From: Escherichia phage T7
Length of the DNA stretch: 37,892 bases
Reading direction: 5' to 3' (one strand)
Sequence record: MZ375264.1
The notes beneath the pieces are model-generated. The model searched no databases and was not told where the DNA came from. It saw only the letters and a list, made by a program, of their open reading frames with translations. Numbering within the stretch: position 1 is the first letter of the stretch; every line of letters starts with the position of its first letter. Shown one piece after another: positions 1-37,892 of this stretch. A program made the position numbers and the translations under genes.

Positions 1-141
1 TCTCACAGTGTACGGACCTAAAGTTCCCCCATAGGGGTACCTAAAGCCCAGCCAATCACCTAAAGTCAACCTTCGGTTGACCTTGAGGGTTCCCTAAGGG
101 TTTGTCTTTGGGTGTTACCTTGAGTGTCTCTCTGTGTCCCT
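1..141. repeat. TR-L: Left direct terminal repeat, 141 bp, identical to 37752-37892
   Basis: Exact identity of the first 141 nt with the last 141 nt of the window; begins TCTCACAGTGTACGGACCTAAAG, the T7 terminal redundancy. Confidence 0.95.
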
Positions 142-224
142 CCCTGTTACAGTCTCCTAAAGTATCCTCCTAAAGACGCCTTGTTGTTAGCCATAAAGTG
201 ATAACCTTTAATCATTGTCTTTAT
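142..224. repeat. Residual left-end array of CCTAAAG-type short direct repeats between the terminal repeat and phiOL
   Basis: Repeated CCTAAAG/CATAAAG heptamers visible at 147-178 and 191-197; in reference T7 this array is about 144 bp longer. Confidence 0.6.
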
Positions 225-2444: not shown

Positions 2445-5096
2445 ATGAACACGATTAACATCGCTAAGAACGACTTCTCTGACATCGAACTGGCTGCTAT
2501 CCCGTTCAACACTCTGGCTGACCATTACGGTGAGCGTTTAGCTCGCGAACAGTTGGCCCTTGAGCATGAGTCTTACGAGATGGGTGAAGCACGCTTCCGC
2601 AAGATGTTTGAGCGTCAACTTAAAGCTGGTGAGGTTGCGGATAACGCTGCCGCCAAGCCTCTCATCACTACCCTACTCCCTAAGATGATTGCACGCATCA
2701 ACGACTGGTTTGAGGAAGTGAAAGCTAAGCGCGGCAAGCGCCCGACAGCCTTCCAGTTCCTGCAAGAAATCAAGCCGGAAGCCGTAGCGTACATCACCAT
2801 TAAGACCACTCTGGCTTGCCTAACCAGTGCTGACAATACAACCGTTCAGGCTGCAGCAAGCGCAATCGGTCGGGCCATTGAGGACGAGGCTCGCTTCGGT
2901 CGTATCCGTGACCTTGAAGCTAAGCACTTCAAGAAAAACGTTGAGGAACAACTCAACAAGCGCGTAGGGCACGTCTACAAGAAAGCATTTATGCGAGTTG
3001 TCGAGGCTGACATGCTCTCTAAGGGTCTACTCGGTGGCGAGGCGTGGTCTTCGTGGCATAAGGAAGACTCTATTCATGTAGGAGTACGCTGCATCGAGAT
3101 GCTCATTGAGTCAACCGGAATGGTTAGCTTACACCGCCAAAATGCTGGCGTAGTAGGTCAAGACTCTGAGACTATCGAACTCGCACCTGAATACGCTGAG
3201 GCTATCGCAACCCGTGCAGGTGCGCTGGCTGGCATCTCTCCGATGTTCCAACCTTGCGTAGTTCCTCCTAAGCCGTGGACTGGCATTACTGGTGGTGGCT
3301 ATTGGGCTAACGGTCGTCGTCCTCTGGCGCTGGTGCGTACTCACAGTAAGAAAGCACTGATGCGCTACGAAGACGTTTACATGCCTGAGGTGTACAAAGC
3401 GATTAACATTGCGCAAAACACCGCATGGAAAATCAACAAGAAAGTCCTAGCGGTCGCCAACGTAATCACCAAGTGGAAGCATTGTCCGGTCGAGGACATC
3501 CCTGCGATTGAGCGTGAAGAACTCCCGATGAAACCGGAAGACATCGACATGAATCCTGAGGCTCTCACCGCGTGGAAACGTGCTGCCGCTGCTGTGTACC
3601 GCAAGGACAAGGCTCGCAAGTCTCGCCGTATCAGCCTTGAGTTCATGCTTGAGCAAGCCAATAAGTTTGCTAACCATAAGGCCATCTGGTTCCCTTACAA
3701 CATGGACTGGCGCGGTCGTGTTTACGCTGTGTCAATGTTCAACCCGCAAGGTAACGATATGACCAAAGGACTGCTTACGCTGGCGAAAGGTAAACCAATC
3801 GGTAAGGAAGGTTACTACTGGCTGAAAATCCACGGTGCAAACTGTGCGGGTGTCGATAAGGTTCCGTTCCCTGAGCGCATCAAGTTCATTGAGGAAAACC
3901 ACGAGAACATCATGGCTTGCGCTAAGTCTCCACTGGAGAACACTTGGTGGGCTGAGCAAGATTCTCCGTTCTGCTTCCTTGCGTTCTGCTTTGAGTACGC
4001 TGGGGTACAGCACCACGGCCTGAGCTATAACTGCTCCCTTCCGCTGGCGTTTGACGGGTCTTGCTCTGGCATCCAGCACTTCTCCGCGATGCTCCGAGAT
4101 GAGGTAGGTGGTCGCGCGGTTAACTTGCTTCCTAGTGAAACCGTTCAGGACATCTACGGGATTGTTGCTAAGAAAGTCAACGAGATTCTACAAGCAGACG
4201 CAATCAATGGGACCGATAACGAAGTAGTTACCGTGACCGATGAGAACACTGGTGAAATCTCTGAGAAAGTCAAGCTGGGCACTAAGGCACTGGCTGGTCA
4301 ATGGCTGGCTTACGGTGTTACTCGCAGTGTGACTAAGCGTTCAGTCATGACGCTGGCTTACGGGTCCAAAGAGTTCGGCTTCCGTCAACAAGTGCTGGAA
4401 GATACCATTCAGCCAGCTATTGATTCCGGCAAGGGTCTGATGTTCACTCAGCCGAATCAGGCTGCTGGATACATGGCTAAGCTGATTTGGGAATCTGTGA
4501 GCGTGACGGTGGTAGCTGCGGTTGAAGCAATGAACTGGCTTAAGTCTGCTGCTAAGCTGCTGGCTGCTGAGGTCAAAGATAAGAAGACTGGAGAGATTCT
4601 TCGCAAGCGTTGCGCTGTGCATTGGGTAACTCCTGATGGTTTCCCTGTGTGGCAGGAATACAAGAAGCCTATTCAGACGCGCTTGAACCTGATGTTCCTC
4701 GGTCAGTTCCGCTTACAGCCTACCATTAACACCAACAAAGATAGCGAGATTGATGCACACAAACAGGAGTCTGGTATCGCTCCTAACTTTGTACACAGCC
4801 AAGACGGTAGCCACCTTCGTAAGACTGTAGTGTGGGCACACGAGAAGTACGGAATCGAATCTTTTGCACTGATTCACGACTCCTTCGGTACCATTCCGGC
4901 TGACGCTGCGAACCTGTTCAAAGCAGTGCGCGAAACTATGGTTGACACATATGAGTCTTGTGATGTACTGGCTGATTTCTACGACCAGTTCGCTGACCAG
5001 TTGCACGAGTCTCAATTGGACAAAATGCCAGCACTTCCGGCTAAAGGTAACTTGAACCTCCGTGACATCTTAGAGTCGGACTTCGCGTTCGCGTAA
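2445..5096 (+). CDS. 1: Gene 1 T7 RNA polymerase, 883 aa
   Basis: ORF 2445-5096; catalytic D537 (AFDGSCSG) and H811/D812 (IHDSFG), Y639 (LAYGSKEF), specificity loop with R746, N748, R756, Q758 all present; ends FAFA. Confidence 0.98.
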   Translation: MNTINIAKNDFSDIELAAIPFNTLADHYGERLAREQLALEHESYEMGEARFRKMFERQLKAGEVADNAAAKPLITTLLPKMIARINDWFEEVKAKRGKRPTAFQFLQEIKPEAVAYITIKTTLACLTSADNTTVQAAASAIGRAIEDEARFGRIRDLEAKHFKKNVEEQLNKRVGHVYKKAFMRVVEADMLSKGLLGGEAWSSWHKEDSIHVGVRCIEMLIESTGMVSLHRQNAGVVGQDSETIELAPEYAEAIATRAGALAGISPMFQPCVVPPKPWTGITGGGYWANGRRPLALVRTHSKKALMRYEDVYMPEVYKAINIAQNTAWKINKKVLAVANVITKWKHCPVEDIPAIEREELPMKPEDIDMNPEALTAWKRAAAAVYRKDKARKSRRISLEFMLEQANKFANHKAIWFPYNMDWRGRVYAVSMFNPQGNDMTKGLLTLAKGKPIGKEGYYWLKIHGANCAGVDKVPFPERIKFIEENHENIMACAKSPLENTWWAEQDSPFCFLAFCFEYAGVQHHGLSYNCSLPLAFDGSCSGIQHFSAMLRDEVGGRAVNLLPSETVQDIYGIVAKKVNEILQADAINGTDNEVVTVTDENTGEISEKVKLGTKALAGQWLAYGVTRSVTKRSVMTLAYGSKEFGFRQQVLEDTIQPAIDSGKGLMFTQPNQAAGYMAKLIWESVSVTVVAAVEAMNWLKSAAKLLAAEVKDKKTGEILRKRCAVHWVTPDGFPVWQEYKKPIQTRLNLMFLGQFRLQPTINTNKDSEIDAHKQESGIAPNFVHSQDGSHLRKTVVWAHEKYGIESFALIHDSFGTIPADAANLFKAVRETMVDTYESCDVLADFYDQFADQLHESQLDKMPALPAKGNLNLRDILESDFAFA

Positions 5097-8974: not shown

Positions 8975-9394
8975 GTGGAACTGCGGGAGAAAATCCTTGA
9001 GCGAATCAAGGTGACTTCCTCTGGGTGTTGGGAGTGGCAGGGCGCTACGAACAATAAAGGGTACGGGCAGGTGTGGTGCAGCAATACCGGAAAGGTTGTC
9101 TACTGTCATCGCGTAATGTCTAATGCTCCGAAAGGTTCTACCGTCCTGCACTCCTGTGATAATCCATTATGTTGTAACCCTGAACACCGTTCCATAGGAA
9201 CTCCAAAAGAGAACTCCACTGACATGGTAAATAAGGGTCGCTCACACAAGGGGTATAAACTTTCAGACGAAGACGTAATGGCAATCATGGAGTCCAGCGA
9301 GTCCAATGTATCCTTAGCTCGCACCTATGGTGTCTCCCAACAGACTATTTGTGATATACGCAAAGGGAGGCGACATGGCAGGTTACGGCGCTAA
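8975..9394 (+). CDS. 2.8: Gene 2.8, HNH endonuclease-like protein, 139 aa, GTG start
   Basis: ORF 8975-9394; motif HSCDNPLCCNPEHRSIGTPKENSTDMVNKGR shared with gene 7.7. Confidence 0.85.
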   Translation: MELREKILERIKVTSSGCWEWQGATNNKGYGQVWCSNTGKVVYCHRVMSNAPKGSTVLHSCDNPLCCNPEHRSIGTPKENSTDMVNKGRSHKGYKLSDEDVMAIMESSESNVSLARTYGVSQQTICDIRKGRRHGRLRR

Positions 9395-37610: not shown

Positions 37611-37751
37611 GGTATACCCATAAAGAGCCTCTAAGGTCTATACCTAAAGATAGGCCATCCTATCAGTGTCACCTAAAGAGGGTCTTAGAGAGGGCCTATG
37701 GAGTTCCTATAGGGTCCTTTAAAATATACCCCATAAAAATCTGAGTGACTA

Positions 37752-37892
37752 TCTCACAGTGTACGGACCTAAAGTTCCCCCATAGGGGTACCTAAAGCCC
37801 AGCCAATCACCTAAAGTCAACCTTCGGTTGACCTTGAGGGTTCCCTAAGGGTTTGTCTTTGGGTGTTACCTTGAGTGTCTCTCTGTGTCCCT
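37752..37892. repeat. TR-R: Right direct terminal repeat, 141 bp, identical to 1-141
   Basis: Exact identity with positions 1-141. Confidence 0.95.

Follow-up and report, generated by a model that had tools for sequence, protein, structure and literature searches.

Besides the concatemer junction (CJ) sequence, T7 RNA polymerase is not known to have any natural class II signal. Seven bases, ATCTGTT, are described as strictly conserved among the CJ, PTH and VSV signals, and the base before them is said to have to be A, C or T (He et al. 1998, as cited). The stop occurs 6–8 nt downstream of this core, and termination is described as strictly sequence-specific, with any base change abolishing it (Lyakhov et al. 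1997/1998; He et al. 1998, as cited). The class II response is reported to be lost when polymerase residues 172–173 are deleted, when R173 is replaced by cysteine (R173C) or when the enzyme is nicked at 178/179, and the mechanism proposed for such signals invokes an RNA:DNA hybrid that is weaker than the competing DNA duplex. A polymerase–lysozyme complex paused at CJ is thought to engage the gp18/gp19 terminase and thereby to start DNA maturation and packaging. Selection for the loss of this pause would thus be unexpected, because the accepted model assigns to the CJ pause a role in helping packaging to start.

The window analysed here is the whole 37,892-nt stretch of record MZ375264.1. The deletions and substitutions that it shares with the genomes of a published series identify it as a laboratory-evolved T7 and not wild T7. 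The left end of the window is 99.5% identical to records named 'Mutant Escherichia phage T7 clone T7_<transfer><L/S>', such as T7_80L and T7_200S. The series stems from CRISPR/Cas9 genome-reduction serial transfer (CiPGr; Yuan et al., NAR 2022, PMC9825161; records MZ375233–294), in which T7 was taken through 300 transfers, at a multiplicity of ~1, on E. coli MG1655 equipped with Cas9 and lambda-Red and with a library of plasmids whose guides and repair templates were aimed at 36 non-essential genes, with one large-plaque (L) and one small-plaque (S) clone sequenced per 10 transfers (PMC9825161). The accessions run from MZ375233 (10L) to MZ375292 (300S), an order confirmed on eight records, and in this order MZ375264 corresponds to T7_160S; the window is almost certainly this small-plaque clone from transfer 160. 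Series deletions in 0.4–0.6, 1.4, 4.3, 4.7, 5.3 and the 19.5 region are all present, and a whole-genome comparison revealed marker substitutions in common with 40S, 160L and 250S. Point substitutions number ~27 in 37.9 kb, and two adjacent ones fall in the CJ heptamer. The CJ element itself is well known, but the main text of Yuan et al. 2022 is silent on its repeated destruction in this public series and gives point mutations only in aggregate (PMC9825161).

The direct terminal repeat of the window, shortened from 160 to 141 bp, has its left copy at 1–141 and its right copy at 37752–37892 (both + strand), the latter ending in ...GTGTCCCT. The two copies are identical over exactly 141 bp and diverge at base 142, as is typical of a T7-like direct terminal repeat. 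Relative to T7, a deletion between GGGTT direct repeats has removed 18 bp from each copy, and a G5 run is shorter by one G, the changes being located at about 34–37 and 98/99 of the window. In other clones of the series a further ~10 bp of the repeat is gone, and an independent line (1t) has a different, 8-bp deletion.

The initial annotation had read CCCTGTT immediately after a 141-bp repeat, and window positions 138–152 indeed consist of CCCT CCCTGTTACAG, within a stretch (121–160) that reads ...tgagtgtctctctgtgtccct|ccctgttacagtctcc. The T7 junction that it gave for comparison agrees with reference V01146, in which the repeat ends in ...GTGTCCCT at position 160 and is followed by ATCTGTTACAG at 161–171. 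The alternative that CCCTGTT is simply the sequence of reference T7 was checked and dismissed, V01146 having ATCTGTT. Alignment to T7 bears out the suggested loss of the ATCTGTT core by an AT-to-CC change and resolves it into A161C and T162C (window 142 and 143). The identity assigned to the element also holds: the mutated heptamer (142–148, + strand) occupies the locus of the CJ class II pause and termination signal, T7 161–167, with its core altered from ATCTGTT to CCCTGTT. The same allele is found in MZ375282 (T7_250S), a separately sequenced clone with another genome background; the change is therefore not a one-off read error.

In most respects the surroundings of the heptamer conform to a class II signal. 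It is positioned just past the repeat and oriented toward the rightward-moving T7 RNA polymerase, as at T7 161–167 and T3 232–238, and the base that precedes it (T at 141, + strand) is one of the three allowed (He et al. 1998, as cited). The stretch in which the wild-type polymerase would pause or terminate, 6–8 nt past the signal (149–156, + strand), is unchanged from T7 168–175. The non-template strand at 142–148, however, reads CCCTGTT in place of the invariant ATCTGTT, and CCCTGTT is expected from the published rules to be inactive for pausing and termination. Since the exchange of A/T for C/G at two bases would strengthen the RNA:DNA hybrid, weaker termination is predicted from the proposed mechanism as well. 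A scan of the whole 37,892-nt window returned no ATCTGTT on the + strand. In the T7 reference (L009) the transcribed-sense + strand contains a single copy, CJ at 161, whereas four copies are present on the − strand of both the reference and the window; such a bias would be expected if the signal were avoided on the strand sense in which T7 is transcribed.

To follow the heptamer through the evolution series, alleles were taken from directly read sequences and from BLAST queries with an exact 76-mer for each allele, several assignments being made by BLAST identity and list order and not from read sequences. The wild-type 76-mer shows ATCTGTT to be kept only in clones 10L, 10S and 20L. Every resolved later clone carries a changed heptamer (250L, 260S and 280L lie outside the base-level count), and six alleles were distinguished: ACCTGTT, CTCTGTT, CCCTGTT, ACCTGTA, ATCGGTT and ATCTGTA, with changes at positions 161, 162, 164 and 167. 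ACCTGTT occurs in 14 clones from 20S to 170L, most of them L, and in four OL9647 clones. CTCTGTT is carried by 25 clones from 40S on and prevails between transfers 180 and 300. Until transfer 170, ACCTGTT belonged mostly to large-plaque and CTCTGTT mostly to small-plaque clones. The allele of the window, CCCTGTT, which unites the changes of these two dominant single-base alleles, was never common, being found in the window (by inference T7_160S) and in 250S, both small-plaque clones. ACCTGTA was found in 80S, 120S and 220S, ATCGGTT in 50S and ATCTGTA in 100S, while another six clones differ from the wild type as judged by identity and list order. The rarer alleles, beyond the two common single changes ACCTGTT and CTCTGTT, are present in 7/28 S clones as compared with 0/26 L clones (Fisher p = 0.010; p = 0.002 with two probable cases added). 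The heavier alleles may be costly, or the rare alleles may simply sit in weak lineages. A second line, represented by T7_1t1 and T7_1t3, has a different terminal-repeat deletion and ACCTGTT in both clones, to which 1t3 adds G171A; these two clones appear to derive from a separate cassette-100 line.

Outside this experiment, the wild-type 76-mer is intact in ~40 other T7 records, including those of other genome-reduced and host-adapted strains, and a mutagenised T7 isolate (K) with 414 substitutions also retains the heptamer. A substitution table built from eight whole genomes of the series shows changes at four positions of the heptamer, whereas no other 7-bp stretch in these genomes is changed at more than two, alignment noise at deletion edges aside. 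The Poisson chance of four changed positions falling in any 7-bp window of the genome is P ~8e-5. The heptamer has thus been under strong and repeated selection for alteration, and this selection is specific to the CiPGr experiment. That the repeat boundary is simply a mutational hot spot, with no selection involved, was considered and rejected, as a hot spot alone would not lead to fixation in all clones of two lines, and the unchanged heptamer of isolate K counts further against it. Deletions occur on both sides of the heptamer, but none in the series clones removes it. Together with the restriction of the heavier alleles to small-plaque clones, this suggests that the element still matters for growth.

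The heptamer changes are accompanied by changes in the polymerase and in other terminal sequences. Gene 1 (2445–5096, + strand), which encodes T7 RNA polymerase, differs from T7 by V137A (base 2854) and Q184R (base 2995). Q184R is absent from 20S and present in every whole genome examined from 40S on, having swept between transfers 20 and 40, and V137A appeared later. The substituted residue 184 is only a few residues from the 172–179 region needed for class II recognition; a literature search for a Q184R polymerase returned only an unrelated T7 study, in which the substitution was in gp12. No change is present in lysozyme, gp18 or gp19 of the window. By comparison with T7, promoter phiOL (225–247, + strand) has a +1 A>G change at 242 (TATAAGGAGA to TATAGGGAGA) which brings it nearer to the consensus; like Q184R, this change is absent from 20S, and all the whole genomes examined carry it from transfer 40 onward. 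The junction of a 144-bp deletion lies at 169–175 (+ strand), between copies of the left-end CCTAAAG-type repeats (T7 about 195–331), and the deletion is common to the window, 200S (CTCTGTT) and 250S (CCCTGTT). Within the same left-end array, 220S has a different deletion and 240S a repeat-to-repeat conversion (183–184 AT>CA). The right-end repeat array of the window, which lies upstream of the right terminal repeat (changes at 37631 and 37729–37730), differs from that of T7 by a 13-bp deletion and a CC insertion.

Further changes were noted elsewhere in the window. The −35 element of host promoter A3 (554) is altered from TTGACA to TTGGCA, as it is in 160L and not in 250S. At the strong late promoter phi10 the +1 G is replaced by T (21078), a change common to 160L, 240S and 250S, and at phi17 the −11 G is replaced by A (32729) in this clone only, making the upstream half of the promoter equal to that of phiOL. 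Gene 2.8 has a TA>GT double substitution (9189–9190) beside a CCT/AGG PAM, and gene 3.8 a nonsense change, S56* (10509). Both genes were targeted, and both changes look like real products of Cas9 escape or of disruption; unlike the changes at CJ, they are late and single-allele. Three substitutions at 1179–1184 (T7 1342, 1346 and 1347) adjoin the 0.4–0.6 deletion and are common to 40S, 100S and 240S; they may reflect the way in which this unplanned deletion was formed.

The explanation favoured here, to which we would give about an even chance of being correct as a whole, is that the CJ pause signal was mutated and inactivated through selection acting on the pause element itself. The altered heptamer would no longer make T7 RNA polymerase pause or terminate, and polymerases crossing the repeat in concatemers would continue into the left end of the genome that follows. 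The selected trait would then be the loss or weakening of a cis-acting pause element, which is the weakest step of the account. Passage at high multiplicity, in which genomes compete within cells, could have favoured CJ changes, and these may have been made tolerable or been reinforced by Q184R, the later V137A and the strengthening of phiOL. In the window, the double mutant would represent a second change on one of the two common single alleles, and this second change may be neutral or carry a mild cost instead of being adaptive. In favour of selection on the pause element, the changes are confined to 161–167, they are accompanied by the nearby polymerase change and the stronger phiOL, and other terminal cis sequences have been remodelled as well (18+1 bp in the repeat, 144 bp at the left end and 13 bp/+2 bp at the right). 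On the other hand, the mutated positions 161, 162, 164 and 167 equally fall within what would be the PAM-proximal seed if Cas9 had a target here, and the commonest change at 161 is a transversion, A>C, and not the transition A>G.

Such a target, a potential SpCas9 site on the − strand at 139–161, would consist of the PAM AGG at 139–141 (CCT on the + strand) and a protospacer at 142–161 (PAM 158–160 and protospacer 161–180 in T7 numbering), with TTTAGGAGACTGTAACAGAT or TTAGGAGACTGTAACAGATA as the matching spacer, and the two substitutions of the window occupy its PAM-proximal positions 1 and 2. If a guide against it was at work, the heptamer changes would be CRISPR escape, with loss of the pause as collateral damage and Q184R-type changes as compensation. 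Such an origin is unlikely in our judgement, though by no means negligible. The phage was passaged for 300 transfers on cells with Cas9 and an sgRNA library, all changes of the series fall at seed positions 1, 2, 4 and 7 beside an NGG, and among ~100 T7 records changes in the heptamer are confined to this Cas9 experiment. Cas9 tolerates rU:dG wobble pairs. The preference at 161 for A>C over the wobble-tolerated A>G fits this tolerance better than it fits a rule by which any change suffices. The emergence of double mutants would be expected if single seed mismatches gave partial escape, and the absence of deletions of the element, together with the small plaques of the heavier alleles, fits a useful element that was forced to change. 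In addition, only 42% of the cloned cassettes were as designed (PMC9825161). Against escape, the spacers were designed against 36 genes only and, according to the authors, regulatory elements were avoided (PMC9825161). The nearest NGG-adjacent 20-mer anywhere in T7 has 7–8 mismatches to the candidate site, and none of ~59 clones has a PAM mutation. With a best match of this kind, off-target cleavage guided by a T7 genic spacer is implausible. Designed targets in the retained genes 0.3, 1.6, 1.8, 6.3 and 6.5 (~six spacers each) are unmutated in the window, at transfer 160, and nearly so at transfers 240–250, which implies that selection per spacer was weak, yet the heptamer had changed by transfers 20–30 and in several alleles. 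A guide present in every cell is ruled out, because clones at transfers 10–20 are still wild type. A native E. coli type I-E target was also considered and rejected: the minus-strand AGG would place its protospacer leftward in the repeat and not over 161–167.

Another possible object of selection is a host RNA polymerase signal that overlaps CJ, in the part of the genome that enters first, in which case the changes would have served to weaken it; we regard this as very improbable. An extended −10-like motif, TGnTACAGT, is present at 145–153 (+ strand) and could act as a context-dependent sigma-70 promoter. The promoter activity of CJ was found to depend on TGn and −12T and to be strong in some contexts (Bao and Forster, bioRxiv 2026), and CJ is also able to terminate E. 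coli RNA polymerase. The rare changes T164G and T167A remove the T of TG and −12T, respectively, and the weakened −35 of A3 in the window implies that host-promoter tuning did occur in the lineage. However, the two commonest alleles and both window changes affect −18 and −17, where promoter effects are modest, while −11A, −7T and −14G are unchanged in all clones and G171A in 1t3 even improves the −10 hexamer. In the window the TG at 145–146 and TACAGT at 148–153 are intact and match the sigma-70 extended −10 motif, which argues against promoter loss as the purpose of its changes. Transcripts from the CJ region are reported to be scarce, and a two-hexamer scan, which is blind to promoters of the extended −10 type, identified no promoter in the CJ of the wild type or in that of the window. 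A terminator scan at CJ likewise found nothing in either sequence. As to the double mutant, its second substitution might have no function of its own, being neutral or slightly harmful or a product of gene conversion or, in the extreme version, an assembly artefact at the repeat boundary. According to the literature in its cited form, a single change is enough to abolish termination; moreover, CCCTGTT is restricted to two small-plaque clones, CTCTGTT dominates up to transfer 300, and the rare alleles are found in S clones only. The background of CCCTGTT is of the CTCTGTT type, with the 0.4–0.6, 4.3 and 19.5 deletions in common with 40S, and it includes the 144-bp deletion of 200S and 250S, so that a second T>C change, or conversion from the co-circulating ACCTGTT, is its simplest origin. 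Against an artefact, CCCTGTT recurs 90 transfers later with the linked 144-bp deletion kept and a different set of deletions, and the existence of two distinct double mutants, CCCTGTT and ACCTGTA, hints at continued pressure. Such a second hit would in any case account for the second change only and not for the altered heptamer in every lineage, and as an explanation of what is seen here it is distinctly doubtful.

Selection on the pause element, if it is indeed the cause, has a wider implication that we put forward tentatively and consider less likely than not: the CJ pause may be dispensable, and even counter-selected, in long passage at high multiplicity, being lost in cis while the polymerase is retuned in trans by Q184R and V137A. 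Were this so, the link between pausing and the initiation of packaging would be conditional or wrong. If the pause itself was selected against, the alleles would provide tools with which to address the need for CJ pausing in packaging and the effect of Q184R. If, instead, a stray Cas9 guide was responsible, the series would caution that phage editing with guide libraries can damage regulatory elements at which it was not aimed. In either case, ~60 time-stamped public genomes document that the signal was altered within 20–30 transfers, that at least six different alleles resulted and that two independent lines were affected, with the phage remaining viable; the isolates that were fittest on the plain host include some carriers of a mutant heptamer. 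The altered heptamer is no natural polymorphism of T7 and should not be taken as variation of the wild phage.

Among the described systems, the escape mutations of Cas9-challenged phages resemble the CJ changes in that they, too, are clustered in the seed beside an NGG and arise during Cas9 passage. The CJ changes differ from them in having no documented guide and no PAM changes, and in timing and number of alleles they far exceed the designed targets in the same genomes. Other class II sites with the ATCTGTT core have this core and the weak-hybrid mechanism in common with wild-type CJ; they are followed by a U-run and terminate efficiently, whereas CJ is mainly a pause site, and at the CJ of the window the core is gone. 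In T3, GTGTCCCT|ATCTGTTA directly follows the 231-bp repeat, an arrangement shared with T7, although the flanks differ. Pattern scans of IMG/VR around the heptamer returned T7 itself and chance matches only, while a scan anchored on the conserved repeat end recovered GTGTCCCT|ATCTGTT in seven T7/T3-like contigs; GTGTCCCT|ATCTGTTA is present in five T3-like contigs. A natural 40.7-kb T7-like contig (L055:12465–12487) has ATCTGTA after GTGTCCCT, which equals the allele of T7_100S, and another contig (L053:2665–2687) has GTGTCAC in place of the heptamer, the canonical motif thus not being universal in natural relatives. The closest counterpart of the altered junction in the window remains the CJ of T7 itself, with which it shares the position, the orientation, the preceding base and the downstream TACAGTCTCC...; by descent the two are one locus. 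They differ at two of the seven invariant bases, and in the window the motif that defines the signal is no longer matched.
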